Shown: positions 6,359 through 49,441, numbered from the stretch's first letter. The stretch: 64,000 nucleotides of DNA from a bacterium (GCA_030428125.1 JAUIBF010000002.1:79910-143909); one strand, 5' to 3'. Notes: generated by a model from the sequence alone, not told the origin. Numbers and translations are program-made.

Positions 6359-6404
6359 TAATAACTATATTGTACGCTAAAGGGTACTAAACACAGGCTA
6401 CTAT

Positions 6405-8390
6405 TTATTTTGCGAATGGCGAATTTGGGTTTGCACCTGTCATCCAAGCTACAACGTCTTGTTGGATTTGGGCATAGATAGCGTATTGCTCAGGGCTAAT
6501 TTGCCTATTTGTGCCAGCAGTCCATATGTTACCGTCTCGAAATTCAAGCTTTTCTAGGTTGTTGTTGGTTGCGTATTCGTTGTATAGATCTACTGTTTGA
6601 CCCGTTGCTTCAACAAACCGGTTCATGTCTAGACCTTGATCTCTTGCCCTGTCCCACGCAGTGTTTCCTTCGCCTGCCTCCATAGGTTCAGCACCTTCAT
6701 CCAATATTATGCTGTCTATTCCAAGAGATTGACTCTCTCCGTTGTCGCTGTTTGCATTGTCAGATTCAGCTTCGCTGTCAGAAGATTCATCAGCTTCTGA
6801 AGTGTCTGACTCACTAGACTCTGCGTCTTCATCTGCAGATTCTTCGTCCGCTGATTCTTCAGCTTCAGCATCTTCGCCGAACTGGTCTGCAACACCCGAT
6901 AAGTCTAGGTCGCCGTTAGTAGCTTCCCCTTCATCAGCTGGTTCTTCGTCTGCTTCAGGAGTAGTAGTGTCTGTGTCACCACCGAACTGACCAGCAATAC
7001 TTCCGAGGTTTAGATCGCTTCCATTTGATTCCGGTGTGGTGTTTTCTGTATCTGAGCCAGCGTTTTCTGCTTCAGTTACTACAGTTGCATCATTTGATTC
7101 AGCATCATCACTGCCCAAGCTGTTTACTAAGGCGCCAATTCCTACAACACTAGCCAATCCAATAATTGCTGCGGCTATTTTTTTACGTCGTGAAGTCTTT
7201 TCTCTAGAAACACTGTTTTCAGGGTCGGTTGCGATATCTAGGTTTGTGCCAGCTAACGAACCCACTCCTTCATGGATTCCCCATTTATTTCCTGAATCGA
7301 GTGGTGCACCACTATTCACAGCGTCGTTTGCTGGAGGTAGTATTATGCTATCTAATGGGTCCTCATCTGCGCCTACTGCGACTGGTGGGTTTTCAGGATC
7401 ATCAGCCCAAGTAAGAACTGTACTATCTAATTCCCCTGCTCCTATTTCATCGTCTGCAGGGTCACCGTCATTATTGATTTTATCAAGACGGGGCTCATGG
7501 GTTATAACTTCATTAATTGTGCCGTGGTAAACGTTACCACCTACACCAGTATTCTCGGTTGCAGTAAGATCTTCCTGGACTTGTCCGGTCTGTTCGTTCC
7601 AGACATCATTCATATGTGTTGCTTGTTCGACTGTTAGTTCTTTCCAGCCGTCTTCCTTTGTCCGTCCAGGAAGCACGATCGGAGTGTGATCGCCTTTTTT
7701 AAATGCTTCATCCATTGCGAGCTCTTGTTCGTATGCGTCCTCAGACATTAGTTTCTTGCGTTCATCATCTCGGAACTTCATTAATCGATCATAGTATCTG
7801 TCTAGCTCAGACTTATGTTCTCCAGAGCCGTCTCTGGATACGTCTCGTATGCTTCCGTCTCTCTCAGCATAGTCATCGTGCATACCTATGGCATCAATTT
7901 TATCGAGTAGAGTAGTGTCTACGGTCTCCATAAAATTCTTGAATGCGCTTCTCTTATACTTACTCGCTTCGTCTTCAGCAGAACCACGACCTCTCCATTC
8001 GGCCCAGGCACTTAATCTTGCAAGCTCAGTTACGCTAAGGTCGTCGGGACTTATCCTTTCACCCATTTGCTCAAGTATGCTCAAACCAGTTGTGACATCA
8101 CCAGATTTAAAAGCTTCGTCAGCCATTATTTTTAATTCTGATGCATCTTTTAGCTCATAAAGTTCAAAATCTGCAGGAGTTCCATAGCTGTAGTAGCTTT
8201 CAGCATTTTCCGTGCTAATAAAATCACCGGTAACTGGATTACGAAAAACTCCTTTCTCGTCCTGGTAAGGGTTCTGTTCCAGGTAAGCGTCCATATCTGC
8301 CTGAGCCTGTCTAAGTTCGGGATCTGCCTGAGCCTGTCTAAGTTTGGGGTTAAATGCATGTTCTACGTTAAAGAGTTCAGGTTTACTCAT
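6405..8390 (-). CDS. Large single-pass membrane protein with an extremely acidic low-complexity ectodomain
   Basis: ORF 6405..8450; I use the ATG at 8390 (MSKPELF). One TM helix (IAAAIIGLASVVGIGALV) is followed by Asp/Glu/Ser-rich repeats. A TTGACA-17-TATTAT promoter lies on the minus strand at about 8440-8467. Confidence 0.6.
   Translation of the reverse strand: MSKPELFNVEHAFNPKLRQAQADPELRQAQADMDAYLEQNPYQDEKGVFRNPVTGDFISTENAESYYSYGTPADFELYELKDASELKIMADEAFKSGDVTTGLSILEQMGERISPDDLSVTELARLSAWAEWRGRGSAEDEASKYKRSAFKNFMETVDTTLLDKIDAIGMHDDYAERDGSIRDVSRDGSGEHKSELDRYYDRLMKFRDDERKKLMSEDAYEQELAMDEAFKKGDHTPIVLPGRTKEDGWKELTVEQATHMNDVWNEQTGQVQEDLTATENTGVGGNVYHGTINEVITHEPRLDKINNDGDPADDEIGAGELDSTVLTWADDPENPPVAVGADEDPLDSIILPPANDAVNSGAPLDSGNKWGIHEGVGSLAGTNLDIATDPENSVSREKTSRRKKIAAAIIGLASVVGIGALVNSLGSDDAESNDATVVTEAENAGSDTENTTPESNGSDLNLGSIAGQFGGDTDTTTPEADEEPADEGEATNGDLDLSGVADQFGEDAEAEESADEESADEDAESSESDTSEADESSDSEAESDNANSDNGESQSLGIDSIILDEGAEPMEAGEGNTAWDRARDQGLDMNRFVEATGQTVDLYNEYATNNNLEKLEFRDGNIWTAGTNRQISPEQYAIYAQIQQDVVAWMTGANPNSPFAK
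8295..8348. repeat. Tandem 27-bp duplication inside the CDS (encodes P[KE]LRQAQAD twice)
   Basis: Units 8295-8321 and 8322-8348 differ at one position. Confidence 0.85.
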
Positions 8391-8451
8391 GATTAATAGT
8401 GTCCTATTTTGCAAATTAATTGATTGATTACAATAGCTATATAATATCAAA

Positions 8452-8495
8452 AAGCTTACGATTTGTCAATAATATTTTATTGCATACGTAAGCTT
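8452..8495. promoter_or_regulatory. Perfect 9-bp inverted repeat bracketing the -35 box of the 6405..8390 gene
   Basis: AAGCTTACG (8452-8460) pairs with CGTAAGCTT (8487-8495). The minus-strand TTGACA sits between the arms. Confidence 0.4.
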
Positions 8496-8668
8496 ATTGT
8501 TTTAGTTACTGCTGTTTGCTTCAACTTCAGGTAAATCTTCGTACTGGAGGCTGAAGGTGATTGTAGTAGTTTCTAGTTTGGTCATTTTTGTTTTTCCTAC
8601 TTAACACCACCATTATAGCAAAAATGCAACATTTTGTCAATACACCTACCCCTGTTACAATAGAGGTA

Positions 8669-9748
8669 ATGATAGTTTTGGGTATAGAGAGTAGTTGTGA
8701 CGAGACGGCAGTCGGAATTGTTAAAGATGGTGAGGAGTTACTTGCTAATGCTGTATTTAGCTCTATGGATTTACATAAAGCATACGGAGGGGTTGTTCCA
8801 GAGATTGCTGCTCGTTCGCACATAGAAAGTATTATTCCTGTTCTAACAGAAGCTTTGAAAACCGCTTTTCCATACATGCCAGAAGACGAAGCCTGGGAGC
8901 AGATTGACGCCATTGCGGTTACACACGGAGCTGGATTGGGTGGGAGCTTGCTCGTAGGAGTTATGACTGCAAAAACACTTGCTGTTACCAAAGGTAAACC
9001 ACTGTACGCAATTAATCATGTTGAAGCACATGTTTATGCTAATTTTTTAACCAAAACTTCTCTAGAAAACTACAAATTGCCGGACAAACAGCCGGAATTT
9101 CCCCTACTCTCCCTGATTGTTAGTGGGGGCCACAGCCAGTTGGTTATTTTCAGGAACCATTTTGACTACACATTGCTGGGACAGACCAGAGATGATGCCA
9201 TAGGAGAAGCTTTTGATAAAGTAGCTAAAATTATCGGACTGCCCTACCCTGGAGGCCCAAGTGTTTCTAAAGCTGCCATGAAAGGTGATCCTAATAAGTA
9301 TAAACTGCCTAAAGCAAGACTTGATAACAAGTATGAATACAGCTTCTCTGGGCCTAAAACAGCCGTTTTACGACTTGCTCAGGAAGAAATAGGTGAAGAT
9401 TTCACATTCCCATCGTTTAAGCTAGCAGAGCGCCTCTCAGAGACTCAAGTGTGCGATATCGCGGCCAGTTTTCAGAAAATAGCTGTCGAAACAGTGGTGG
9501 ACAAGACAGTTCTAGCTTTTGAGGAGTTTGAACCGAAGTCAGTAGTTATCGCAGGTGGAGTAGCAGCTAATCAGGAGTTACGCAAGCAGCTATCAGATAG
9601 AATCCCGATAGATGTTGAGTACACCGACATAAAACTCTGTACCGATAATGGAGCAATGATTGCGACTTTGGGTTGTTTTAAGGTAATGAATGAACAAGAA
9701 GTAGCCGACCCCTACTCTCTCCAGCCTCAACCAAATCTAAGTATGTAA
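8669..9748 (+). CDS. tsaD: tRNA N6-adenosine threonylcarbamoyltransferase TsaD
   Basis: N-terminus MIVLGIESSCDETAVGIV and the Kae1/TsaD family layout throughout. TGtTACAAT (8653-8661) lies 7 nt upstream of the ATG at 8669. The ORF-track TTG at 8588 is unlikely to be the start. Confidence 0.92.
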   Translation: MIVLGIESSCDETAVGIVKDGEELLANAVFSSMDLHKAYGGVVPEIAARSHIESIIPVLTEALKTAFPYMPEDEAWEQIDAIAVTHGAGLGGSLLVGVMTAKTLAVTKGKPLYAINHVEAHVYANFLTKTSLENYKLPDKQPEFPLLSLIVSGGHSQLVIFRNHFDYTLLGQTRDDAIGEAFDKVAKIIGLPYPGGPSVSKAAMKGDPNKYKLPKARLDNKYEYSFSGPKTAVLRLAQEEIGEDFTFPSFKLAERLSETQVCDIAASFQKIAVETVVDKTVLAFEEFEPKSVVIAGGVAANQELRKQLSDRIPIDVEYTDIKLCTDNGAMIATLGCFKVMNEQEVADPYSLQPQPNLSM

Positions 9749-10132
9749 CTTTTGTTCCTTATACCAAACACCTACCCCAGAGGAGTAAAAGGGCGTACCT
9801 TCATCAGGCTCGACGAACAAATAAGGCCCTACCCTACCACCATTACGTAGTGAATCTATGATGGCTTCATTGCTTCTACTAACATCCATGTCCAATACTT
9901 TCTGCACAGTTCTTTCCGGGAATGCATCAGAGACTTGTGCTCCTTCTAGCATCCTGTATCCATTTAGATGCAGCTTCACCCCCGTCATTATGGCTTGTGT
10001 AACATCAATATTAACTAGTTCGACTTCTGGGCTAAATGGGAACTCAAAAGCATCAGCAACTTCGCTAAATATAGAAATAGCTCGACCAGAGCCAAAGTCG
10101 CTACTTAGGGGGAATTGTCTTTCGCTAGGCAT
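9737..10132 (-). CDS. Hypothetical protein
   Basis: 131-aa ORF with an ATG start. Overlaps the tsaD 3-prime end by 12 nt. No motif recognised. Confidence 0.5.
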   Translation of the reverse strand: MPSERQFPLSSDFGSGRAISIFSEVADAFEFPFSPEVELVNIDVTQAIMTGVKLHLNGYRMLEGAQVSDAFPERTVQKVLDMDVSRSNEAIIDSLRNGGRVGPYLFVEPDEGTPFYSSGVGVWYKEQKLHT

Positions 10133-16197: not shown

Positions 16198-16728
16198 ATG
16201 AAGATTCATGTAGGCAGTAAAAACCCAACTAAAATAGCTGGGGTAGAGAACGTAGTTAAACAGAGCGAGATGTTTAAAGACGCAAAAGTAGTTGGGGTAG
16301 ATGCCAGTGTGGAAGAATTTGGTCATCCTAAAACGCTTGATGATACTATTCAAGGCGCTAAGGACAGGGCTCTAGCAGTACATAGTGGAGCCGATTACAG
16401 TGTAGGACTAGAGAGTGGTTTATTTACATCAAACGACACAAAATCCGGATATTTAGAAACTACAGTTTGCGCGATATATGATGGAAATGACTTTCACATA
16501 GGTATGGGGCCGTCTTTTGAATGGCCGAAGAAAATGATAGAACTGATTTTGGATGGACAGGATGGTAGCCAAGCATTTAAATCGCTCGGCCTAACAGAGC
16601 ACGAAAAAGTAGGCACAAAAGAAGGCGGAATTCATGTTCTGTCGTTTGGTAAGGTTAATCGAACTAATCTGAACGAGCTTGCTTTTGCAATGGCTCTGAT
16701 TCAGTTAGAGAATCCTGATCACTACTAG
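16198..16728 (+). CDS. Inosine/xanthosine triphosphatase, YjjX-like (DUF84)
   Basis: MKIHVGSKNPTKIAGV ... VGVDASVEEFGHPKTLDDTIQGAKDRA ... VGLESGLF matches my recollection of the YjjX family pattern. Confidence 0.75.
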   Translation: MKIHVGSKNPTKIAGVENVVKQSEMFKDAKVVGVDASVEEFGHPKTLDDTIQGAKDRALAVHSGADYSVGLESGLFTSNDTKSGYLETTVCAIYDGNDFHIGMGPSFEWPKKMIELILDGQDGSQAFKSLGLTEHEKVGTKEGGIHVLSFGKVNRTNLNELAFAMALIQLENPDHY

Positions 16729-17788
16729 GAGGGTCGTTGCTTTCTCTATCAGATTTATCAGATAAATCTTTATTCTTGTTTCGAGTCAAGGCCAAGTAAA
16801 TAATGATTGCAAAACCAATTGTAGCTAAGGTAGCTGCGATATAGTACTGCTGGTTTGAAATACTCTCGCTAGCCTCGTTAGCTACCGGCAGAACAACAAT
16901 ATTTTCTATTGAGTCTTGTTCAAAGTTTAAGAAATCAGTAACGCCTCTTGAAACAATGCCCGTAACCGCTACAGTAAGCGATGCAATAAGATATATAGTT
17001 GCAACCTTACCTAAGCCTTTACGAGTGTTTTCGCTGAGAAGTATGACACCAATCGTTAAAACAATTGATGCAACTATCGAAACCCACAACATAGTTTTTG
17101 CACGCTGGTACCATTCCTGAACATCAGTGTCCTGCAAGGCCTCTCTTAGGCTTTTAGTTTCTCCATTTTCACCTTCCACAGTCAAACTTTCAGCCGATAT
17201 TATAGGATTTGGGATAAAGTCTTCATTGTTTATGAATTCTTCACGTATTTCTTCCAGCTTTTCGTCTATACCGACCTCAGGGTTACAAGGGATGCTGAAG
17301 GGATTGAAATCATTTCGGAATTCAAATAATTGTGTTTGAGAGCAAGATGGCAGCGTTTCCAAACGAATACTCGCTTCTTCTACTATGTTTTCTGCTAGAG
17401 CTAACTTCTCGGATGTAAAGTCCACGACAAACTCAAGTACAGGCGCGTCACCCTCGAGCCAGTTGTAGGCACCATCCATAATTTTTTCTACAGCGTTTTG
17501 TAGAACTTCTCCGGAGAATGCTTTAGATGCTGCACGTCTAATAATTTCACTGTCCACATCAAAACCATTCTCCATAAGACCATCTGACTCAGGTGCTTTA
17601 TTGTCTATCAATTCTTCTATAGCGTGATCGATCACCTTGTCGTAGGTGTTACTGTCTACAAACCATTGCTTTACTTCCTGACGGTTAGCAACAGTGTTAT
17701 TAATCGTAATAAAAATTGCCGCAATCAGCAGAACATTTATAAGCAAGAAGCCAGTAATTACCAGAAATATTTTCCTGGCGATTCTCAT
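16664..17788 (-). CDS. Membrane protein (N-terminal anchor, large ectodomain, three C-terminal helices, acidic tail)
   Basis: 374-aa ORF. The 3-prime end overlaps the convergent YjjX-like gene by 65 nt. Confidence 0.6.
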   Translation of the reverse strand: MRIARKIFLVITGFLLINVLLIAAIFITINNTVANRQEVKQWFVDSNTYDKVIDHAIEELIDNKAPESDGLMENGFDVDSEIIRRAASKAFSGEVLQNAVEKIMDGAYNWLEGDAPVLEFVVDFTSEKLALAENIVEEASIRLETLPSCSQTQLFEFRNDFNPFSIPCNPEVGIDEKLEEIREEFINNEDFIPNPIISAESLTVEGENGETKSLREALQDTDVQEWYQRAKTMLWVSIVASIVLTIGVILLSENTRKGLGKVATIYLIASLTVAVTGIVSRGVTDFLNFEQDSIENIVVLPVANEASESISNQQYYIAATLATIGFAIIIYLALTRNKNKDLSDKSDRESNDPPSSDQDSLTESEPLQKQARSD

Positions 17789-23709: not shown

Positions 23710-24381
23710 ATGAACATACTAGTTGTTACAGCACATGATGATCCGCAGGCGTTTGTTGCAGCGTTGCACAATACTGCTCTTGGTGTGCTGGAGAGAGCTG
23801 AGCACAAGGTTGAAGTCACTGAACTTTATGCACAGAACTTTAATCCGATAGCTTCTGATATTGATTTTGAAGTTAAATCCGTATCACATGCAAATTACAT
23901 GTTTGAACAACAGAGAACTGTAAATACTGGTGGAAATTTTAGCCCAGATATTAAAACTGAAATGGATAAAATATCTCGAGCAGATTTAATTATTATTCAT
24001 TTCCCACTATGGTGGGGGAATATGCCGGCGGTACTTAAAGGTTGGTTTGATAGGGTATTTGCTATGGGATTTGCTTGGGGTGCCGAAAACCGTTACAGAA
24101 ATGGATTATTAAGAGGCAAAAGAGCCTTAGTGACGGTAACAACTGGTGACCCAATGTCTTACTACACCTCGGAGGGTATGCATAAGGCTTCGGTCGAACA
24201 ACATTTGTACGGATTACTACACGGGACGCTTGCTTTTTGTGGCATGGATGTCTTGAAGCCAGTAATTATTGCAAATACCACTGCTGCAAGCAGAGATGAA
24301 CTAGAAGTTGGCACCAAAAGGTATCAAGAGTTCTTAGGTTCTGTGGATACTAATACTACCTATATCTATAAACATTCTTAG
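23710..24381 (+). CDS. Flavodoxin-fold NAD(P)H dehydrogenase (quinone)-like protein
   Basis: MNILVVTAHDDPQAFV... and IIHFPLWWGNMPAVLKGWFDRV are typical of the NQO/Flavodoxin_2 family. CGTAGAAT box lies 7 nt upstream of the ATG. Confidence 0.75.
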   Translation: MNILVVTAHDDPQAFVAALHNTALGVLERAEHKVEVTELYAQNFNPIASDIDFEVKSVSHANYMFEQQRTVNTGGNFSPDIKTEMDKISRADLIIIHFPLWWGNMPAVLKGWFDRVFAMGFAWGAENRYRNGLLRGKRALVTVTTGDPMSYYTSEGMHKASVEQHLYGLLHGTLAFCGMDVLKPVIIANTTAASRDELEVGTKRYQEFLGSVDTNTTYIYKHS

Positions 24382-24932
24382 AGTGGGCTGTCTTGCAGTC
24401 TAAGTAGCCAGGCAAACACATTAATTACAGGGTGCAGTATCAACCCTAAGAACAAAACAAACAAATAATTCGATAATGGCAAAGTGAAGAAGGGTAGTGA
24501 AATCAACATAGCGCCAATTATGTAGTCAGACTGATCAAAAAAGAACCAGTTATGACCAGGTTTTATCCCAACTTGTCTTTTAAAGAAACTTTTTACAGCA
24601 TCACCAACAATAGCTCCAAATCCTAAGACAGAACCTATATAAACTGCCTCAATTGAGCCGTAGTCAACAGGCAGAAGGTTAGTGCTTGGCCAGCTAAAAA
24701 GCTCGAATATAACTAATTGAAATACACCGATTAACGTACCCATCAGTACTCCTGCTAGTAGCCCTCGTACAGTTTTGTGGCTGCCTAAAATACGTTTGCC
24801 TCTAAATTTTTTATGAGCGTCGAGTGGTTGAGTAAATTTTTTCAGAACCGGAACATTATTGGCTAGAACGGGTGCTGTGTTAGCAAGTCCAGCAGGCAAA
24901 AAGAGCCAAATTAATGCTAGCAGTTCAGTCAT
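24378..24932 (-). CDS. CDP-archaeol synthase-like (CarS/DUF46) membrane cytidylyltransferase
   Basis: LPAGLANTAPVL...PLD...GKRILGSHKTVRGLLAGVLMG and GDAVKSFFKRQVGIKPG...FDQSDY match my recollection of the DUF46/CarS pattern. 4-nt overlap with the PHP gene. Confidence 0.75.
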   Translation of the reverse strand: MTELLALIWLFLPAGLANTAPVLANNVPVLKKFTQPLDAHKKFRGKRILGSHKTVRGLLAGVLMGTLIGVFQLVIFELFSWPSTNLLPVDYGSIEAVYIGSVLGFGAIVGDAVKSFFKRQVGIKPGHNWFFFDQSDYIIGAMLISLPFFTLPLSNYLFVLFLGLILHPVINVFAWLLRLQDSPL

Positions 24933-25582
24933 CTCTGTCCCCTTAGTGAGTTCTTAAACCTGTTGAATTTAGGTAGCGCTAAGGTCCAGAGTGGTGGTTT
25001 TCTGCTTACTAACTTTGCATTTTGTAGCATTGCTACCAAATTATTTACGGTTGGTAGCTCATCGACTATTGTGTAGGTCCTCCCTAAACCTGCTACTCCG
25101 TGTGCATCGCTGCTGGCTGCTTTTTCGCAGCCGTTTGTTTCGGCCCATTCAAGTGCTTGCTTACTAAAGTTTTGGAATACGGCTCTACCGTTACGAACCT
25201 CTACAATATCGATTTCATCGCGAAGTGCAAGCATTAGTTCGGCCTGCAAGCCTTTCCTAACGGTTTCAAAAGGATGAGGCACATACACCAAACCACCCTG
25301 ACTTTTAATAGCGTCAACTGTGTTTTGCGCATTCATCCCAGGTTTAACAGCCTTGCTTAAAAACAGCCCGATAATTTCACCTTGAGAGGTAGTAATTTCT
25401 TGGCCGACAATAATGTTTTCAGGACCTAGAGCTTTCTGTAACCCTAACGCAAAATCTATTCGATCATGATCTGTGATTGCTATGCAGTCTAGTACCTCAT
25501 TTTGCAAAACTTTAGCATACTGTTCGGGGGTAATTCCTCCGTCCCTGGAGGCCTCAGAGTGAGTATGCAAATCTATTTTCAC
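24929..25582 (-). CDS. PHP-domain metal-dependent phosphoesterase
   Basis: MKIDLHTHSEASRDG ... ITDHD ... PHP ... SDAHG, the PHP His/Asp motifs. Confidence 0.8.
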   Translation of the reverse strand: MKIDLHTHSEASRDGGITPEQYAKVLQNEVLDCIAITDHDRIDFALGLQKALGPENIIVGQEITTSQGEIIGLFLSKAVKPGMNAQNTVDAIKSQGGLVYVPHPFETVRKGLQAELMLALRDEIDIVEVRNGRAVFQNFSKQALEWAETNGCEKAASSDAHGVAGLGRTYTIVDELPTVNNLVAMLQNAKLVSRKPPLWTLALPKFNRFKNSLRGQR

Positions 25583-26229
25583 TTTTTGGATTTCTTCTTT
25601 AAGTTTTTTTGATCAATTGCGTAAAGTTCTTTAGTAACGACCAAAAATCGCAGGGCAACGGTAACCAAGTTTGCTGCAACGAGAAGTGGTATTAGTAGCT
25701 CCAAAATTCCAAATAACAAACCGACGATTATGATCACCATTCTTATTTCGTAGCTGGCAATTCCGACTGAGAAGATTCTGTTTAACTTTTGTGGGTCAGT
25801 TTTGCTTCCTGAAACTGCCATTTCACCTTTAGCTTTGGTGTAACTAACAAGAATTGAAGAGCCACAAAGTGCCACAATCATCCAAAGCATATCGCTTTCA
25901 AAATGCTTGAATCCGTAGACTGCTAGTGCGCTATATACAATAACTTCTTTGATTCGGTCACTGACCGCGTCAAAGAACATCCCAGAAAGGGTAGCAGAAT
26001 TTTGATACCTCGCTAGCGCACCGTCTAGAGCATCCATCAATCCAAAAACAGCTAACAATACAGCAGCTAGAACGGGTCTGCAAGACACCAAAGCCCAAGC
26101 CACAGGGATGTGCCCTAACAATGACAGAGTTGTAATATGAGCTGGTTTAATTTTGCCTTTTGTCCAATAGTCTAAAAATCCTGCGACGTGGTACATCGCT
26201 GATTTCACAAACGCCACGATTTTATCCAT
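25579..26229 (-). CDS. CDP-alcohol phosphatidyltransferase
   Basis: Signature DALDGALARYQNSATLSGMFFDAVSDRIKE (D-G-x2-A-R-x8-G-x3-D-x3-D). The ATG at 26229 has TATACT 7 nt upstream. The ORF-track start at 26334 is unlikely. Confidence 0.85.
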   Translation of the reverse strand: MDKIVAFVKSAMYHVAGFLDYWTKGKIKPAHITTLSLLGHIPVAWALVSCRPVLAAVLLAVFGLMDALDGALARYQNSATLSGMFFDAVSDRIKEVIVYSALAVYGFKHFESDMLWMIVALCGSSILVSYTKAKGEMAVSGSKTDPQKLNRIFSVGIASYEIRMVIIIVGLLFGILELLIPLLVAANLVTVALRFLVVTKELYAIDQKNLKKKSKK

Positions 26230-26289
26230 ATGTATTAGTATACGACGTCCTGTGCTAAAAACTAAAAGTCGGTGTATACTGTAACAGAT

Positions 26290-27969
26290 ATGAAAGACGA
26301 TGTTATCGAAGCAATTGCTGGTGTTTGCAAGCAATTATTTGATTCAGATGTAGCCATTGAAATCGAAAGACCGGATGAGCAGTTCGGTGATTGGGCTTGT
26401 AATGTGGCTATGCGACTCGCTAAACCTCTAGGTGAAAACCCAAGAAATATCGCACAAAGCGTCGCTGAGAAATTAAATGAATCTGAGATGTTTGAAAGTG
26501 TTGGTGTAGCAGGTCCAGGTTTTATTAACATGACCTTGGCAGATAATGTATTACTTGAATCTTTGGATGCCAAACAGGCTGAGCCATTAAACGGACTAAA
26601 GGTTTTAGTAGAATATTCCGACCCTAATCCATTCAAGCCACTTCACGCAGGACACTTATACACCACCTTAGTTGGAGATGTGATTGCTAGATTAGTCGAA
26701 AACGCTGGAGCAAAGACGATTAGGCTTAACTATGGGGGAGATGTCGGACTTCATGTAGCTAAAAGTATGTGGGCAATCGTAGAGTATCTTCAGGGTGAAT
26801 TGCCAGAAAAACTTAACGAAATCCCAGAAGACAGCAGGGCAGAATGGCTCGGCGAGCGTTATGTAGAGGGCAACAATGCCTACGAAGAAAACGAAACAGC
26901 TCGAGCAGAAATAGTTGAAACCAACAAGGCTATCTACAAGGTTCAAGCCGAATGCGACCGCGAAACAGGCTTTGCTAAAATTTACTGGACCTGTAGAGAA
27001 TGGAGCTACAGTTACTTCAAGGAACTTTATAATCAACTAGAAGTTCACGAGTTCGATCGATTTATACCAGAAAGCGAAGTAACACAAACTGGAATCGATA
27101 CTGTTCAAAAACAACTGCAAACAGGTGTTTATGAGCAAAGTGATGGTGCAGTGATATTCGACGGCGAAAAGTTCGGACTCCACAAGCGTGTATTTTTAAA
27201 CTCCGAAGGTTTGCCAACTTATGAGACCAAAGACGTGGGTTTGAGTCTTACCAAGTGGCGCGACTATAAATTTGATGAATCAGTTATCATCACCGCAAAC
27301 GAGCAAGCTCAATATATGGAAGTTGTCATTAAGTCTATAGAGCAGTTTGAGCCAGAACCTGCAGAGAAGACTCGGCACATAACGCACGGTGTTCTAAAGA
27401 TGTCAGGTGGAGTAAAGATGAGCTCCCGAAAAGGAAACGTGCTACTTGCAATGGACATGCTTGAAGCGGCACGTAAGGCCGGCATGCAAAGTGGTTCAGC
27501 TAAAGATGAGGCCACTGTGCTAGCAGCATTGAAGTATGCGATGGTTAAAAACCGCATCGGTGGAGACGTGGTTTACGACCCAGAAGAGTCCGTTGCAATG
27601 GAAGGAAACTCCGGGCCATATCTTCAGTATGCTCATGCAAGAGCTTGCTCGATTTTGGGTAAGGCAAAGAATGCACCAAACAATGAATTTCTAATGCATG
27701 ACTATAAGCTCAATGAGAGCGAAAGGTCTTTGGTTCGAATTCTGTCACAATTCAATGAAGTTATCGAGCAATCCACAGTCGAGCTAGCACCTCATCATAT
27801 ATGCACATATCTATTTGAACTAGCGCAGAACTTCAATAGGTTTTACGAAAAGAACAAAGTTATTGGAACCGAACAAGAGAGTCCAAGAATCTCACTCGTC
27901 GGGCATTACAAGGTAACGCTTGAAAAAGGACTAAGCCTACTAGGCATTACTGCTCCGGAATCTATGTAA
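26290..27969 (+). CDS. argS: Arginine--tRNA ligase
   Basis: About 560 aa. SDPNPFKPLHAGHL (HIGH region), an MSSRKG (KMSKS-like) motif and a DALR-type anticodon-binding C-terminus. Confidence 0.95.
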   Translation: MKDDVIEAIAGVCKQLFDSDVAIEIERPDEQFGDWACNVAMRLAKPLGENPRNIAQSVAEKLNESEMFESVGVAGPGFINMTLADNVLLESLDAKQAEPLNGLKVLVEYSDPNPFKPLHAGHLYTTLVGDVIARLVENAGAKTIRLNYGGDVGLHVAKSMWAIVEYLQGELPEKLNEIPEDSRAEWLGERYVEGNNAYEENETARAEIVETNKAIYKVQAECDRETGFAKIYWTCREWSYSYFKELYNQLEVHEFDRFIPESEVTQTGIDTVQKQLQTGVYEQSDGAVIFDGEKFGLHKRVFLNSEGLPTYETKDVGLSLTKWRDYKFDESVIITANEQAQYMEVVIKSIEQFEPEPAEKTRHITHGVLKMSGGVKMSSRKGNVLLAMDMLEAARKAGMQSGSAKDEATVLAALKYAMVKNRIGGDVVYDPEESVAMEGNSGPYLQYAHARACSILGKAKNAPNNEFLMHDYKLNESERSLVRILSQFNEVIEQSTVELAPHHICTYLFELAQNFNRFYEKNKVIGTEQESPRISLVGHYKVTLEKGLSLLGITAPESM

Positions 27970-36591: not shown

Positions 36592-37194
36592 GTGAAAATA
36601 GTTGGAGTAAGCGGCAGAGACAGAAGCGGGAAAGACACAATCGCTGAGTACCTAATTGAAAAAGGCTATTTTGGTTATTCGTTAGGTGATGCTGTGCGCA
36701 GACACTCTATGACTCGTCACAAAGACAAAGAGGATCCTATTTCTGTTCGTAACATGACCGAAACTTCTAACTGGCTCCGTACGACCTATGGTCCTGACGT
36801 GGTACTAAAGCAAGCTTTAGAAGAGTACGAAAAGGCTCTCGAAAACGGTAAAGTGTATAAAGGCATTGTAGTTTATAGCGTTAGGGCACCTATTGAAGTT
36901 GATTTTATTTTAGATAACGACGGTGTGATGGTCTGGATAGAATCATCCGACGAAACACGTTATCGTCGCAAAATTGCAAACATGCGTGAAGGTGAAGCGA
37001 AAGTCACGATTGAAGAGATGTTAAGCCAGGAAGCTTTGCAAACTAGCCCACAAGCAGACAAACCTAGAGAAGTCCAAATGGATCTTCAGTATGTTCAGTC
37101 TAAAGCCACTGTGGTCATAGAAAATAATAGCGATGATATAGAGCAGTTTTTTCAGAAAGCAGCAGATCAACTTAGCAATAAATTGGAGCTGTGA
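36592..37194 (+). CDS. P-loop nucleotide kinase-like protein (dNMP kinase-like, tentative)
   Basis: Walker A-like GVSGRDRSGKDT and a length of 200 aa. GTG start. Confidence 0.5.
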   Translation: MKIVGVSGRDRSGKDTIAEYLIEKGYFGYSLGDAVRRHSMTRHKDKEDPISVRNMTETSNWLRTTYGPDVVLKQALEEYEKALENGKVYKGIVVYSVRAPIEVDFILDNDGVMVWIESSDETRYRRKIANMREGEAKVTIEEMLSQEALQTSPQADKPREVQMDLQYVQSKATVVIENNSDDIEQFFQKAADQLSNKLEL

Positions 37195-38294
37195 TGAGCG
37201 CTAAAACTACTCAGAATGATAAATTTGTAAGTAGCTTAAAAGACTATAAACAAATAATTGATTTAGAGATTGATAAGTATTGTGAACAAGCGTTGACCGA
37301 TACACACGAGCAGTTCGGTGAGTATTCCCAGGAAGCAGTAAAGGTATTTTGTGAAATTCTGAAGCGTGGCGGTAAACGAATGCGCGGGATTCTGGCTATA
37401 AATTCCTATAGAATGTTTGGTGGCAAAAATCCGAAAGTTGAAGCCAAAGCAGCTCTTGCAATCGAGATGCTCCATGCCTACATTTTGATGGCAGACGACA
37501 TTCAGGATCGCTCTGACACAAGACGAAATGGTCCGACAGCACACGTAATGCTAGCTGACTATCACAAAGAAAATCACTTACGTGATGATTCAGATCATTT
37601 CGGAACAAGCATTGCTATTAACGGGTTCTTGTTTGGTGCTCATAGTGCGCTAAATATTTTAGCTGATTTAGATGTACTACCTAAACTGCGACTTGAAGCA
37701 ATAAAAAACGTTAATAACTTCTTTATTTCAACAGCACATGGTCAGACGGTAGATATTTTTAATGAAGTGATAGAAGAAGCATCTGAGCAGGATGTTGACA
37801 AAGTTATGACCTGGAAAACTGCATACTATAGCTTTATGAATCCGCTTCAGCTCGGAGCAATTTTAGCTGGCGCAAAACGAAACGACTTAGAAAAGCTGGA
37901 AGATTATTCACTTAGTGCCGGAAGAGTATTTCAGATAACCGACGACATTCTCGGTGTGTTCGGTAAGGACGAAGTTACAGGTAAAAGTTCACTGGATGAC
38001 ATTAAAGAAGGGAAGCGAACGCTTCTAACCGTAAAAGCAATTGAACTTGCCCCTAAAGCTGATGCTTACTACTTAGAACAAATGCTAGGAAATAAAAAAT
38101 TGACAGCCAATCAATTCAAAAGATGCAAAGAAATAATTGAATCATCAGGCGCTCTAGCTTATGCTCAACGTCAAGCAAAAAACTCTGTTGTTGATGCGCT
38201 TAACTCCTTAGATAAGCCAAACAAATCTTGGGGTAAACTAGAATTAGATTTCCTAGAATCGCTAGTCAAGACTTTGCCAAGTAGGGTAAGTTAA
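37194..38294 (+). CDS. Trans-polyprenyl diphosphate synthase (FPP/GGPP synthase family)
   Basis: First Asp-rich motif LMADDIQD and second FQITDDILG. The ATG overlaps the previous stop (TGATG). Confidence 0.85.
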   Translation: MSAKTTQNDKFVSSLKDYKQIIDLEIDKYCEQALTDTHEQFGEYSQEAVKVFCEILKRGGKRMRGILAINSYRMFGGKNPKVEAKAALAIEMLHAYILMADDIQDRSDTRRNGPTAHVMLADYHKENHLRDDSDHFGTSIAINGFLFGAHSALNILADLDVLPKLRLEAIKNVNNFFISTAHGQTVDIFNEVIEEASEQDVDKVMTWKTAYYSFMNPLQLGAILAGAKRNDLEKLEDYSLSAGRVFQITDDILGVFGKDEVTGKSSLDDIKEGKRTLLTVKAIELAPKADAYYLEQMLGNKKLTANQFKRCKEIIESSGALAYAQRQAKNSVVDALNSLDKPNKSWGKLELDFLESLVKTLPSRVS

Positions 38295-38349: not shown

Positions 38350-39510
38350 ATGAACGTTGTAGATTTAGGAAATAGAGAAAGTCTGGAAACTTATAGAGCA
38401 GGTGTAGTCGAGGCATTACCGCAGATATTGGGTGATGTTGGGTTCGCCGAACAAGCTAGGTTGGTAGAGCAAGGTAGAGTTAATGACTTTCTGACCTGGT
38501 ATACGGGCTCCGTCGCAATTGAAGGACATGGCGCTACGGCTAACGCAATCGGTTTAACGCCTGAGCAAACATCTAAATTTAACGCTCATGCTATCGAACA
38601 CAGATTGATGGGTCCGGTAGATTTATGGACTCCAGATGATGATATACCAACGGGGCAGAATGTAGGCGATATAAAACTATATGACCCATTCCCGGAGATC
38701 GATAAGCTAATACCCGAGGCATACCAAGCAGGTAGAAGTTTCGTAGTCGGTGCTTTGTTTAGAGGCATGGTCGGAAGAATTGATTCAGCTGTGGAACTTG
38801 CAAGACGAAACGAGAGATTTAATAGTGGGATAGGATATGAATTTGTGATGCTTTCTGGTCAAAGAGAGCCATTGGCTGGAGATTTAGGTGGTGAAGTGTA
38901 CAAAGAATTTTTCCCTCAAACAACCGGTGATGTGGAACAATATTTAGAACTTTTGAAAGACGAGCCTACAATGGCTACTGCAATTTTCGCAAAACACTTA
39001 GAGTTTGTTGGTGAACCTGAAGTCGTATACGATGAAAATCCTGATTCACCTGAAATGAGCCATCCAGACTTAGGTCCTCGAACATGGATAAAGAAATCTT
39101 ACACAGCCACACTAGACGGAAAACCAGTAACTCTTACAGTGATGAATGCAAAGGCAGTACCTCCAGCAGGGCAGATGAACCGTTCGGGCTGGAAACCAAA
39201 CGCTTCTGATGCACTTTCTGACTGGATTGAACACACAGATCCAGAAACACTAAACCAAGTAGCTGTTTACAACATATCCTATGCTCATATGCTTCGAATT
39301 GCAGCAGCGCTACACAAAGCCGGCCATGATGTGGACAGCAGACTAGCAAGCGCAATCCCTGTAGGGAATATGCCGTTAGAATCAACTTGGTACGGTGTCA
39401 ACAGAAATGGCCATATGAATGGCGGGACGTTAGGGTTTAAAGAAATAGTCCCAGTAGTGATGAATGTTAATGAGCTGGTCGGAAGAGATAAGAACGATTT
39501 AAGCGTCTAG
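38350..39510 (+). CDS. Hypothetical protein (386 aa)
   Basis: Long ORF with no motif recognised. Convergent with the ATPase operon. Confidence 0.55.
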   Translation: MNVVDLGNRESLETYRAGVVEALPQILGDVGFAEQARLVEQGRVNDFLTWYTGSVAIEGHGATANAIGLTPEQTSKFNAHAIEHRLMGPVDLWTPDDDIPTGQNVGDIKLYDPFPEIDKLIPEAYQAGRSFVVGALFRGMVGRIDSAVELARRNERFNSGIGYEFVMLSGQREPLAGDLGGEVYKEFFPQTTGDVEQYLELLKDEPTMATAIFAKHLEFVGEPEVVYDENPDSPEMSHPDLGPRTWIKKSYTATLDGKPVTLTVMNAKAVPPAGQMNRSGWKPNASDALSDWIEHTDPETLNQVAVYNISYAHMLRIAAALHKAGHDVDSRLASAIPVGNMPLESTWYGVNRNGHMNGGTLGFKEIVPVVMNVNELVGRDKNDLSV

Positions 39511-40279: not shown

Positions 40280-42523
40280 CTATTCTACACTGGTTTTGGT
40301 TGATTCTTGTTTCATTAATGAGGATAAATCCGGCATGCCTCGGTCAACTACAGGAACGCCACTCATCGCAAATCTTAAGACGGTTGGTGCTAGTATTGTG
40401 GCATCAACTGGACTATGGCCAATTTTGCTTTGAGACGAAGACTCTATATTGGTGTTTCCTGTGCCTTCGCCAGGAAGCAGTTCGGTACGTTCGTCTGATC
40501 TAAATGCTTCTGGATGAGCCTCTTGTAAAAGTTGTGACACGTCTTTGTTGGTATATTCATTTTCGATGTCTACTGGTTGCACAGAAAAATCAGGTGGTTT
40601 CTGGATCTGAGTGGTTATAGCGCTTTCGGCACGATCAAAGAAGTCATCAATTGCGATTGGTGCTGACTCTTCAAATGGTTTCAGTTCCTCAGGACTAACT
40701 TTTTGGGCTTCCATAGGTTTCCTGGAAGCCTGGTAATCTTCAGAAACAGGTCGGTAACCGTTCAGCGCATCGTATGAAATATCTACGGTCTTTGCTTTAA
40801 AACTAGGTAAAATTTTACCGCCAGCAGAAATCCGTACAATACATTCTCGTGGATGTAGTTCGGTCAAGAATCGTGCTTTTAAGACTTCTTCTTTTACGCC
40901 TTTTTCTTTGGACTCCACAGCAATTTCTTTAGGGATTTCCATAGTTAAATTACCGACTAGTTGAGTTGCGTCTTCTTCAGAAACACGGAAACAGTAATAG
41001 TTACTTACGTTGGCGAATATAGCATCAGACAAACCTTTTTCTACCTGAGTAAAGTATTGTTGGGTGAGAATTACGAACAGATTGTATTTGCGAGCTTCAG
41101 ATAATATTGAAGCTAGAGCAGGGGTCTGCACAACCGAAACCTCGTCGATAAATAACAATACTTTTTGATTGAAGGCTTTAGACTGTGCGAGCAGGAATAT
41201 CTGCTGTATTAGAAGTCCGGCAACTGTTTTTACCACTTTTTCGCCCATAGAGACTTTATTAAGTGAGAATACTGTTAGGAAATTTTCATTAATGCTTTTC
41301 TGTAAAGACAAACCACCTTCTGCGAGGAAAGTTGGTTGCAGTTCCATTTCATCAACGATTGAAATAATAGGTAACAAGCCTTTTTCGTAGTGTGCTGTTC
41401 GAATTTCGTTAAAGTCTGTACCGAAGAAATGAATTATATTGTTTGGTACATGTCCATCAACATGGTCCAAAATTTGTTGACGCAGTTCCGTTTCTATTAA
41501 AAATCTCTTTAGATTACCCATCGACATATTTTTTGCCGTGAATAAGACAAACAGTGTCATTCGTAAAACTCGCTCAACTTGTGAGTTCCAGCTTACGCCA
41601 ATCAATGACTTCATCAATGTCGTCGTTAATTCAGTTGCACCCGTTACGTCAGCTTCGGCACCGGCAAATAACTCAGCACTGTCGCTCCCGAAATCTACTA
41701 GCTGCATACTGCCACCTGCACTAGAATTTTGTAGATCAGTTGCCAGGTTAGCATGTGGGTCAACAACTACTATCCGGTAGTTGTTATTGGTCGGCATTTT
41801 GTGTATTCGGTCGATAAATAACTCAATGAACTTAGACTTACCGGAACCTGATGCACCAACAATCATGGAATGTTTATCAAATTCAAAGTTACCCAAGTTT
41901 AGATAGTAGGGCTTTGTAAGGTAGGGGAAAGTGTTAACCTCTAAAATACTATTATGACTTTCCGGTGACATCCACTTCAGAGATTTTTCAATATTCAGAT
42001 ACTTTGGGACTTCACTTCGAATAATATTTGAAGCAGAAGAGAAATCCACTGCGAATAAATGAGAAGGGAACGAAGCTGCAGTTTTCTTGGCAACCACAGG
42101 TTGACCAGCTGCATCGTTAAAATAAAAGCTTAAACTAACCTGGTCGTATTTATCGGTTAGCCAGCGAGTTTCGCAGATAAAATGCTCTAACTTAATATTC
42201 TTTTTAGTAGACATTTTTTCTTGCAAGTTAAGTAAATTACCACCACTTGGCAGGGTGAAGAAGCCCTGTTTGCCAGGGTTTTCCGGAGTAGCTATTTCTT
42301 CTGCTTCAACGGGTTGTAAGGTGCAAAAATCATTTGCGCTTGAGAGCGAAGATAAATCTTTCTCCGACTCAATAAAATAGCGCATGTGATTATCATGTAA
42401 TGTGATGTGATAACGAATTTTCTTAAGCAGGCCACTATTGCTAGCTATAGATTTATTGAAGGCAGCAAAAGCTTCTTTTGTTATTTCATCTTTGTTTATG
42501 AATAGCTCAAATACGTAGCTCAT
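40280..42523 (-). CDS. FtsK/HerA/TraB-VirB4-superfamily P-loop ATPase (747 aa)
   Basis: Walker A HSMIVGASGSGKSKF, Walker B VLLFIDEVSVV, and SEARKYNLFVILTQQ, the arginine/TQ segment typical of this superfamily. It has no TM helix, an unrecognised N-terminal 220 aa and a disordered C-terminal 160 aa. Confidence 0.75.
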   Translation of the reverse strand: MSYVFELFINKDEITKEAFAAFNKSIASNSGLLKKIRYHITLHDNHMRYFIESEKDLSSLSSANDFCTLQPVEAEEIATPENPGKQGFFTLPSGGNLLNLQEKMSTKKNIKLEHFICETRWLTDKYDQVSLSFYFNDAAGQPVVAKKTAASFPSHLFAVDFSSASNIIRSEVPKYLNIEKSLKWMSPESHNSILEVNTFPYLTKPYYLNLGNFEFDKHSMIVGASGSGKSKFIELFIDRIHKMPTNNNYRIVVVDPHANLATDLQNSSAGGSMQLVDFGSDSAELFAGAEADVTGATELTTTLMKSLIGVSWNSQVERVLRMTLFVLFTAKNMSMGNLKRFLIETELRQQILDHVDGHVPNNIIHFFGTDFNEIRTAHYEKGLLPIISIVDEMELQPTFLAEGGLSLQKSINENFLTVFSLNKVSMGEKVVKTVAGLLIQQIFLLAQSKAFNQKVLLFIDEVSVVQTPALASILSEARKYNLFVILTQQYFTQVEKGLSDAIFANVSNYYCFRVSEEDATQLVGNLTMEIPKEIAVESKEKGVKEEVLKARFLTELHPRECIVRISAGGKILPSFKAKTVDISYDALNGYRPVSEDYQASRKPMEAQKVSPEELKPFEESAPIAIDDFFDRAESAITTQIQKPPDFSVQPVDIENEYTNKDVSQLLQEAHPEAFRSDERTELLPGEGTGNTNIESSSQSKIGHSPVDATILAPTVLRFAMSGVPVVDRGMPDLSSLMKQESTKTSVE

Positions 42524-42531
42524 CTTTAAGT

Positions 42532-43308
42532 TTATTGTACTTCTAATGAAGTCTTTCTGCTAGCTTCTGTGCCGGCTTTAACTAAACCAAAGATTTGCTT
42601 TATAGACTCTGCAATCTGTGGGCTGTCGATAATCATACCAATCGCTTCTTCGCCGAAAGAAATAATACTAACTTTGTTGCCGTAGGCTGCGATCTCTACC
42701 GGGGCAGTGTAATCATCCACTCCAATTTGAGTACGGACCAGGTTAAATTCGGAGTCCAGTTTTTTGTTCCACGCATCAGTGTCTTCGCTGCCATTTAGGA
42801 CATGGGTTTTTATTCCTAGTTGTGCTCGCTTTTTCTTGTAGGCAATATAGTAATCGGTAGAAAGTAGGTCTTGATCGTGCAGGGAACGGAACAAGTAGAT
42901 GTCCTTACAGGTACGCAAGGTGTCATTGTATATTTCTTTAATTTCGTTAATGCCTTGGTAAAACTTAATGCCTGGTTGGTCTGAAAACGTCTGGAAATAC
43001 TTGAGCATCATTGGCATAGATGCTTGCACTTTTCGTTCTTGCTCGAGTGCTTCACCGCGTTTTTTTGCGGCCAATCTCTCTAGAGCTACCGGGTTCTCTG
43101 GGTAGTAAGTTAATTTTTTTCTGACTTCTTTTTCTTTGGCTAGCCCCATAGTGGTTAGTTGGTCCAATACTGCATATGCGTTGGTGCGCTTAATTTTGAG
43201 CTTCTCTACTAATTCCGGTGGGGTAAGCGATCCAGATTTAATAAGGGTAATATAAGCACTCGCTTGAGTGTCATTAAGTCCTATCTTGGTTAGGGTAGCC
43301 TTATCCAT
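42532..43308 (-). CDS. TrmB-like winged-helix transcriptional regulator
   Basis: The N-terminus LTKIGLNDTQASAYITLIKSGSLTPPELVEKLKIKRTNAYAVLDQLTTMGLA is a TrmB-type wHTH. 258 aa total, as in TrmB-family proteins. Confidence 0.7.
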   Translation of the reverse strand: MDKATLTKIGLNDTQASAYITLIKSGSLTPPELVEKLKIKRTNAYAVLDQLTTMGLAKEKEVRKKLTYYPENPVALERLAAKKRGEALEQERKVQASMPMMLKYFQTFSDQPGIKFYQGINEIKEIYNDTLRTCKDIYLFRSLHDQDLLSTDYYIAYKKKRAQLGIKTHVLNGSEDTDAWNKKLDSEFNLVRTQIGVDDYTAPVEIAAYGNKVSIISFGEEAIGMIIDSPQIAESIKQIFGLVKAGTEASRKTSLEVQ

Positions 43309-49132: not shown

Positions 49133-49441
49133 ATGAGCGGCGCTGCAGTTTTAGACGCAGGGACGGATGGTTCTGGAGCAGGACCACCTCCTGAGGTTGG
49201 TGAACGTACACCAGATGGATTTGGTGATGGGGGTGATTGGGAACAATGGTTGCGCCAGTTCGATCCAGAATTAGCAGAGTTATTAACTGTTGAGCGGGTT
49301 AAAGATGTAGGTAGAGGAGTGACGTCTATCGTAGAGGCCGAAATCCCGCTAGCAGCAGGTCATGTCGCTGCCTCTGCCTACGTTACGCCGACACATCCGG
49401 GTATCAGACAAGTTGCACCTGGATTCTATATTCTGAATTAG
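49133..49441 (+). CDS. Hypothetical Gly/Pro/Asp-rich protein (102 aa)
   Basis: ORF with a GGGGG RBS-like tract. The first 60 nt are 36/60 G+C by hand count. Confidence 0.45.
   Translation: MSGAAVLDAGTDGSGAGPPPEVGERTPDGFGDGGDWEQWLRQFDPELAELLTVERVKDVGRGVTSIVEAEIPLAAGHVAASAYVTPTHPGIRQVAPGFYILN

Follow-up and report, generated by a model that had tools for sequence, protein, structure and literature searches.

A three-gene Saccharibacterium operon encoding a CarS-like cytidylyltransferase, an inositol-phosphate-type transferase and a candidate phosphatidylinositol phosphate phosphatase

Here, we report a three-gene operon from a Saccharibacterium (Patescibacteria) that, on balance, we read as the core of a three-step phosphatidylinositol (PI) head-group pathway in a lipid-scavenging organism. 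The operon lies on the minus strand of a 64,000-nt stretch of DNA (the window; GCA_030428125.1 JAUIBF010000002.1:79910-143909; ~41% GC), whose close homologues are labelled Candidatus Saccharimonadales or Patescibacteria group. In order of transcription, it encodes a CDP-alcohol phosphatidyltransferase (gene 1), a PHP phosphoesterase (gene 2), and a CarS-like (DUF46, PF01864) cytidylyltransferase (gene 3). Each gene is identified by family and carries intact catalytic motifs, and in relatives the cluster shows conserved linkage with myo-inositol-phosphate synthase (MIPS) and a lipid kinase. Patescibacteria do not synthesize lipids and are believed to reuse those of other organisms (PMC11665869, PMC7242380).

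In the proposed route, the CarS-like protein would use CTP to activate a phosphatidic-acid-type lipid (most probably diacyl and host derived, and in relatives supplied by an adjacent DAGK_cat/YegS-type kinase), giving a CDP-lipid and pyrophosphate. The transferase would then combine the CDP-lipid with L-myo-inositol-1-phosphate to yield phosphatidylinositol phosphate (PIP) and CMP, and the PHP protein would remove the phosphate group on the inositol, converting PIP to PI. We infer all of these substrates and products, the diacyl backbone, and the substitution of CarS for CdsA. A diacyl backbone is favored because Patescibacteria are believed to recycle the lipids of their neighbors, the linked kinases are of the DAG-kinase/YegS type, and the bacterial loci hold no ether-lipid genes. 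A three-step head-group pathway had been suggested in a first-pass annotation made from the sequence of the window; comparative genomics lent support to each of its elements, through the CarS type of gene 3, the transferase type, MIPS and lipid kinase genes in the clusters of relatives, and the PHP linkage. The description of the pathway as self-contained was too strong, with MIPS, lipid kinase, and acyltransferase genes all missing from the window.

Gene 1 (25579-26229; 216 amino acids [aa]; ATG at 26229), gene 2 (24929-25582; 217 aa; GTG start), and gene 3 (24378-24932; 184 aa; ATG start) had the same boundaries in an independent gene call on the identical public contig. The longest open reading frame (ORF) of gene 1 begins with a TTG at 26334, but would overlap argS (26272-27969, plus strand). 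Both the ORF list and the raw sequence agreed with the earlier description of three minus-strand genes with overlaps of exactly 4 nt, namely GTGA at 25579-25582 (gene 1 stop and gene 2 start; AAG-TGA/GTG-AAA) and ATGA at 24929-24932 (gene 2 stop and gene 3 start; AGA-TGA/ATG-ACT). The trio is translationally coupled in its arrangement, and a Shine-Dalgarno-like AAGGGGA is found just 5' of the gene 3 start. Because a 4-nt overlap alone is common in compact genomes, it is the conservation of the trio, described below, that shows selection on it.

The operon and argS diverge from a 42-bp intergenic region (26230-26271), within which, we infer, the operon promoter must lie. A TATACT on the minus strand (26242-26237) stops 7 nt short of the gene 1 ATG; given this spacing, the transcript may carry only a very short leader or none at all. 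Consensus promoter and terminator scans of the operon region returned sites no more frequently than in shuffled sequence. At its other end, the operon converges on a Flavodoxin_2 gene, and the stop codons of this gene and gene 3 overlap (24378-24381), leaving no space for a terminator.

All three gene families named in the first-pass annotation were confirmed with Pfam. Gene 3 matched PF01864 over nearly the whole model (1.4e-29; 103.8 bits against a gathering threshold of 22; model positions 5-173 of 175), compared with 31.5 bits for PF01148, and scored 134.9 bits with the NCBIfam CarS equivalog (NF003114) compared with 18.7 bits for CdsA. Its only solved relative was the CarS of Aeropyrum (ApCarS; 5GUF; 8e-14; residues 4-183). 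Taken together, these comparisons uphold its assignment to the DUF46/CarS type and not the CdsA type. The product, a CarS homologue with hydrophobic segments, is an integral membrane protein and has all residues that are invariant or nearly so across 78 archaeal and bacterial CarS homologues; the conserved CarS residues are D38, K53, G110-D111, S115-F116-x-K118-R119, and D133-Q-x-D136. A PROSITE-style CdsA signature had no match in the window and 164 loci (1.45 Mb, made up of loci and not whole genomes). In a neighbor-joining CarS tree, a large Patescibacteria clade was supported; the tree was otherwise star-like and supported no donor lineage, and we make no claim of horizontal transfer for that reason. 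The nearest archaeal relatives, in a biased sample, were DPANN archaea.

Gene 1 matched CDP-OH_P_transf (PF01066; 1.7e-12) and retained an intact CDP-alcohol phosphotransferase (CAPT) motif (D66-x2-D69-G70-x2-A73-R74-x8-G83-x3-D87-x3-D91), so that the D-G-x2-A-R...D-x3-D signature noticed previously is indeed present, as D66 to D91. Its two top NCBIfam families were archaetidylinositol phosphate (AIP) synthase (AIPS; 97.9 bits) and PIP synthase (PIPS; 66.9 bits), with di-myo-inositol phosphate phosphate (DIPP) synthase at 46.6 bits and the PgsA models at 24.1 and 17.7 bits; all of the best-scoring families use inositol phosphate as the acceptor. The nearest solved structures were the PIP synthases of Mycobacterium tuberculosis, Mycobacterium kansasii, and Renibacterium salmoninarum (E values of ~1e-6). 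In PIP synthases, the acceptor phosphate is held by two arginines (PMC4634129), which are R155/R195 in the M. tuberculosis enzyme (MtPIPS) and R153/R191 in that of R. salmoninarum (RsPIPS). Gene 1 R194 aligned with RsPIPS R191 and was conserved in 82% of the subfamily (23/28). These matches support gene 1 as a predicted class I CDP-alcohol phosphatidyltransferase that is PIP/AIP-synthase-like and of the inositol-phosphate-acceptor type.

Gene 2 scored above the gathering thresholds of both PHP (PF02811; 2e-06; 28.7 versus 26.4 bits) and PHP_C (PF13263; 5.8e-07; 29.4 versus 21.3 bits). Its candidate metal ligands (H6, H8, D14, H39, E62, H103, D159, and H161) were invariant among 41 PHP homologues, and its C-terminal tail was conserved as P-x-x-N-R-x-K-K. 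An AF2 model (pLDDT, 94.6) returned PHP structures in Foldseek (E = 1e-11), the nearest solved ones being uncharacterized PHPs, RNase AM, and 3'-phosphoadenosine 5'-phosphate (pAp) phosphatases, at 16 to 25% identity; Foldseek and sequence searches assigned no substrate. The product had no transmembrane segment and no homology to PgpA. A C-terminal amphipathic membrane-anchor helix was considered and dropped, the hydrophobic moment of the tail not being among those of the top segments. From its genomic association with inositol-lipid genes, gene 2 is a credible candidate for a prokaryotic PIP phosphatase.

That association was drawn from a scan of one genome per species. CarS homologues were found at 80 loci, of which 54 are bacterial and 26 archaeal, and the genes around them were compared by tblastn and by clustering of neighboring ORFs. 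PHP was directly upstream of CarS in 26 of the 80 loci (25 Patescibacteria-type and 1 Nanoarchaeota), and an AIPS-like transferase adjoined PHP in 23 of these 26; the operon is thus conserved. The transferase was divergent in 15 of the 23 loci, and the other 8 had the same-strand trio seen in the window (L002, L004, L010, L011, L012, L027, L046, and L060), as did three further loci beyond the 80-locus set (L082, L083, and L167). Among the 54 loci without PHP, only 5 had an AIPS-like transferase (Fisher p = 3e-12, with no correction for common ancestry), leaving 49 CarS loci with neither gene. A PgsA-like transferase accompanied CarS in 27 loci, 1 of which had PHP. By these co-occurrence counts, PHP tracks the inositol-type transferase and not CarS as such.

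MIPS (PF01658; 2.5e-35) adjoined the cluster in five loci, beside the transferase in L009, L017, L020, and L022 and beside CarS in L034, where the transferase is off the contig end. A DAGK_cat/YegS lipid kinase was part of the cluster in six bacterial loci; a DAGK_cat+YegS_C kinase was encoded between PHP and CarS in L013, L014, L016, L017, and L018. In relatives, therefore, both pathway inputs would be supplied, inositol-1-phosphate by MIPS and a phosphatidic-acid-type lipid by the kinase.

The same data bear on the head group. If it were glycerol, the transferase would be a phosphatidylglycerol phosphate (PGP) synthase, PHP a PGP phosphatase, and the product phosphatidylglycerol, the anionic lipid that bacteria usually have; we regard this reading as unlikely. 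The window is without MIPS, all NCBIfam scores of gene 1 are under cut-off, the conserved arginines do not discriminate because glycerol-3-phosphate is also a phosphorylated acceptor, and the one archaeal PHP-CarS locus (L045) has PgsA-like neighboring transferases. Set against these points are the far higher AIPS, PIPS, and DIPP synthase scores than PgsA scores of gene 1, the use of inositol phosphate by all of its top PDB relatives, and the adjacency of MIPS in the five related loci and in Conexibacter (below). A separate PgsA-like cluster also exists and co-occurs with an AIPS-like gene in L036 and L069, L167 has a second transferase, and PHP is almost absent from the PgsA-like loci.

A soluble inositol phosphodiester (di-myo-inositol phosphate or glycero-phospho-inositol), with no membrane lipid made, is scarcely credible as the product. 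DIPP synthesis also ends with a dephosphorylation, and gene 1 does score with the DIPP synthase model. Such a route requires a soluble inositol-phosphate cytidylyltransferase, but none is encoded here. Gene 3 is instead an integral membrane protein, and the cluster has linkage to a lipid kinase.

Several variants of the CarS loci were recorded. An ORF of ~320 aa without a Pfam match lies between PHP and CarS in L007 (5043-6005) and L030 (5043-6005), and just upstream of CarS in L006 (5064-6008), which has no PHP; occupying the lipid-kinase position, it may be a non-homologous replacement kinase. Genes of GH130 (the beta-mannoside phosphorylase family; each ~645 aa, extended at the N terminus ahead of the GH130 domain) come after the cluster in its MIPS-containing form, as tandem pairs in L009 (3089-6867), L014 (1751-5563), and L017 (6536-10376) and singly in L020 (9835-11787) and L022 (9299-10861), a linkage that may point to mannosylated inositol lipids or to the salvage of mannosides. 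In L167 (5712-8189; Saccharimonadales DATIIT010000020.1), the trio is followed by the second CDP-alcohol transferase on the opposite strand, with a weak DAGK_cat gene ~2 kb upstream, an arrangement that would fit a CarS supplying two or more head-group enzymes. In DPANN-type archaeal loci (L054, 3350-6531; L025, L028, L058, and L066), the genes clustered with CarS were DUF212 (divergent PAP2), phosphatidylserine-decarboxylase-like, and PgsA-like genes, joined in one case by a DAGK_cat kinase; archaea that scavenge lipids may have a head-group/salvage cassette that parallels the bacterial one. Eleven loci with Patescibacteria-type clusters and CarS sequences bore other labels (Gammaproteobacteria for L013, L019, L020, L036, L037, L042, L059, and L069; Sulfotelmatobacter for L014; Acidiferrales for L017; and Pseudomonadales for L035); on these metagenome-assembled genome records, the labels look unreliable or the contigs misbinned.

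PHP also occurs in inositol gene clusters that do not contain CarS. A metagenome scan seeded with PHP sequences only gave 80 loci, and in ~17 of these, all high in GC, PHP was the C-terminal domain of a protein of ~630 to 650 aa with an N-terminal GT4 glycosyltransferase. In 10 of the ~17, MIPS was upstream of the GT4::PHP gene, immediately next to it in 9; wherever the contig extended far enough, an AIPS-like transferase preceded MIPS. Solirubrobacterales and Conexibacter are the source of the fusion, and the cluster that contains it is widespread among them. In Conexibacter woesei, which is in culture (L165; CP001854.1 818416-836338, genes at 5254-9923), the order is PAP2_3 (inositol phosphorylceramide [IPC]-synthase-like), CDP-OH_P_transf, Inos-1-P_synth (MIPS), and GT4::PHP, the transferase scoring 142.6 bits with AIPS and 142 bits with PIPS. 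The same PAP2_3/PIP-synthase-like/MIPS/GT4::PHP cluster was present in L100, L106, L124, L131, L139, L140, L141, L152, L154, and L158. NCBIfam gave no decision between a PimA-like and an MshA-like GT4 domain in the Conexibacter fusion. Another cluster (L119, 1352-7894) combines MIPS, two Lip_A_acyltrans (PatA-like) genes, PHP, and a CDP-alcohol transferase and resembles the mycobacterial pgsA1-patA-pimA region, and in L134 a CDP-alcohol transferase comes directly after PHP. PHP domains from clusters without CarS were 32 to 37% identical to that of the window over the full length.

Low-GC metagenome contigs carried PHP homologues beside genes for a UbiA-family prenyltransferase, a PMT_2 glycosyltransferase, LPG_synthase_TM, GT2, and DegT (L085, 5177-7592; L087, 4945-6654; and L091, 3437-6663). 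This setting might reflect a lipid-linked phospho-sugar that needs dephosphorylation.

These contexts also speak to a role for PHP other than that of PIP phosphatase, whether as an inositol monophosphatase (with a eukaryote-style PI synthase), as a pyrophosphatase that pulls the CarS reaction, or as a housekeeping enzyme of the RNase AM/pAp-phosphatase kind that just happens to be in the operon. We consider such a role rather unlikely. Its basis is that the closest characterized PHP relatives are RNase AM and 3',5'-bisphosphate nucleotidases, that PHP followed by CarS is the tightest adjacency, and that PHP homologues occur in unrelated contexts, such as beside UbiA/PMT_2 or metG. In the CarS loci, however, PHP follows the inositol-type transferase, with 49 loci lacking both, and the nucleotidase and RNase models of NCBIfam reach only the N-terminal ~50 residues of the protein, far under their cut-offs (34 to 35 bits versus 375 to 400). 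Since some MIPS/PIPS clusters with PHP have no CarS, PHP is unlikely to be a CarS-specific pyrophosphatase or helper.

Several observations weigh against a PI pathway with PHP as its phosphatase. Transferase and CarS occur together without PHP in five loci (L003, L036, L049, L059, and L069). The PHP fold is silent on the substrate, and nucleotides or RNA are what its nearest characterized relatives act on. An MshA/MshA2-type route could also account for the GT4::PHP fusion; in the mycothiol pathway, the MshA/MshA2 pair acts on a soluble glycosyl-inositol-phosphate. The fusion supports a phosphatase acting on a substituted inositol phosphate more firmly than a lipid PIP phosphatase; in the window, the lipid reading is the natural one because PHP is translationally coupled to a membrane PIP-synthase-like enzyme. 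The first phosphate-binding arginine of gene 1 is ambiguous because of an insertion there in the window protein: HMMER paired R151 (K148-L-N-R151) with the RxxR motif, and subfamily conservation points to R163 (82%, 23/28 members). Gene 1 also falls under its equivalog cut-offs (AIPS, 97.9 versus 180 bits; PIPS, 66.9 versus 170 bits), as does gene 3 (CarS, 134.9 versus 148 bits), and we therefore file them as PIP/AIP-synthase-like and CarS-like, respectively. Pfam scans of the large ORFs found no MIPS, lipid kinase, PlsC/PlsY, or second CDP-alcohol transferase in the 64-kb window. Finally, archaeal CarS takes digeranylgeranylglyceryl phosphate (DGGGP) in preference to phosphatidate, and complementation of an Escherichia coli cdsA mutant by AfCarS failed (PMC9385802), for which reasons a diacyl substrate for gene 3 is an assumption.

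Were the CarS-like protein to keep an archaeal-type substrate, the operon would build an isoprenoid inositol lipid (archaetidylinositol-like) or activate a polyprenyl phosphate, from scavenged or self-made isoprenoid lipid. This is improbable in our view. In its favor, the protein is clearly of the CarS type and only 13 bits under the equivalog cut-off, its closest archaeal relatives in the sample are DPANN, the transferase scores best with the archaeal AIP synthase model, and a trans-polyprenyl synthase is encoded in the window. On the other hand, neither the window nor the ~6 kb surrounding each of the 54 bacterial loci contained genes for geranylgeranylglyceryl phosphate synthase (GGGPS), DGGGP synthase (DGGGPS), or glycerol-1-phosphate (G1P) dehydrogenase, the kinases linked to the cluster belong to the DAGK_cat/YegS lipid-kinase type, and the polyprenyl synthase shows no synteny with it. 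Actinobacteria have diacyl lipids, PI included. Cultivated Saccharibacteria grow on Actinobacteria (PMC10633639). A version in which the isoprenoid preference is retained, the epibionts build archaetidylinositol-like or other CDP-activated isoprenoid lipids, and PHP is the missing AIP/PIP phosphatase shared with DPANN archaea is highly improbable; if true, the divide between bacterial and archaeal lipids would have been crossed naturally in Patescibacteria.

The PI pathway proposed here was compared with known systems. The archaeal archaetidylinositol route consists of CarS, AIP synthase, and then an AIP phosphatase described as unidentified (Morii 2009; Jain 2014; reviewed in PMC9385802). It shares with the operon a PF01864 CarS, an inositol-phosphate-type transferase, and three steps with a phosphorylated intermediate. 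Unlike that route, the operon is in a bacterial host with no ether-lipid genes detected nearby, both of its lipid enzymes are under the equivalog cut-offs, its CarS is in a large Patescibacteria clade, and it encodes a specific candidate phosphatase, PHP, between the other two genes. The actinobacterial PI route uses Ino1 (MIPS), PgsA1 (PIP synthase), and then a PIP phosphatase likewise described as unidentified (PMC4634129). Here, the likeness is that PIP synthases are the nearest solved relatives of gene 1, MIPS is linked in relatives, and PI is the probable product; the differences are that CDP-diacylglycerol comes from CdsA in that route and a CarS-type enzyme is found in the operon, that the operon transferase is distant (E ~1e-6), and that the starting point is probably a scavenged lipid.

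In Bacteroides thetaiotaomicron, BT_1522-BT_1526 encode PIP synthase, PIP phosphatase, MIPS, and a PAP2-type IPC synthase, and the PgpA-like BT_1525 is the PIP phosphatase, the only characterized PIP/AIP phosphatase (PMC9246714). The Conexibacter cluster has the same parts list, with the difference that the Bacteroides phosphatase is PgpA-like and not PHP; the BT cluster also has no cytidylyltransferase. The bacterial phosphatidylglycerol route (CdsA, PgsA, and PgpA/B/C) follows the same logic of CTP activation, transfer to a phosphorylated alcohol, and dephosphorylation, with another head group and with enzymes that, at each of the three steps, share no homology or only distant homology with those of the operon. 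COG0613-type PHPs (RNase AM/TrpH; Cv1693 and Bad1165) share the PHP fold and the same candidate metal-ligand set with gene 2, but are ~16 to 25% identical and longer (~280 to 290 aa versus 217 aa); the window PHP is set apart by its conserved tail and by its lipid/inositol gene context.

For a soil Saccharibacterium, PI and phosphatidylinositol mannoside synthesis from scavenged phosphatidate has been predicted by KEGG annotation (Starr 2018; PMC6031116). A literature search, which most subscription journals lay outside, found no paper that described this operon, dealt with CarS in Patescibacteria, or reported a PHP-type PIP phosphatase, and the prediction of Starr 2018 was the one result that came near; CarS and lipids are not mentioned in Coleman 2019 or in the Cell 2023 transposon sequencing (Tn-seq) paper. 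What appears to be new is the enzyme set, with CarS where CdsA would be expected and PHP as the phosphatase, which is elsewhere either unidentified or PgpA-like.

In the rest of the window, the other large ORFs with Pfam matches were housekeeping only (Pfam scans and the annotation of L001), and CdsA was absent by the same scans and annotation. The scans also agreed with the earlier remark that no acyltransferase genes are visible. The trans-polyprenyl synthase (37191-38294; PF00348; 3.5e-54), which the first-pass annotation had placed 11 kb from the operon, is real and follows rpoD and a small kinase; a link with the operon finds no conserved arrangement, and we rejected it as an operon partner for want of synteny and because the conserved cluster is without prenyl-lipid genes. 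At 40280-43308, a TrwB/TraG-like type IV coupling protein (747 aa) is encoded beside a TrmB-family regulator and may be part of the Patescibacteria type IV secretion/conjugation-like machinery. Six ORFs of 360 to 680 aa had no Pfam match at an E value of ≤1e-3 (6405-8450, 58209-60122, 16664-17788, 38350-39510, 49438-50526, and 55523-56680).

How Patescibacteria build a membrane without lipid synthesis is an acknowledged gap, and the operon and its relatives outline a testable salvage route of lipid kinase, CarS-type activation, PIP synthase, and phosphatase. PHP would be a specific candidate for the prokaryotic PIP phosphatase, described in 2015 and 2022 as unidentified outside Bacteroides (PMC4634129, PMC9385802), and the idea can be tested without cultivation of an epibiont because the same PHP module is present in the cultured Conexibacter woesei. 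The pathway reading has its support from comparative genomics, and a role in lipid salvage is plausible for a route with these two non-canonical enzymes. If a CarS-type enzyme does serve a bacterial phospholipid pathway, this would affect how sharp a boundary CarS and CdsA can be taken to mark between archaeal and bacterial lipid chemistry.

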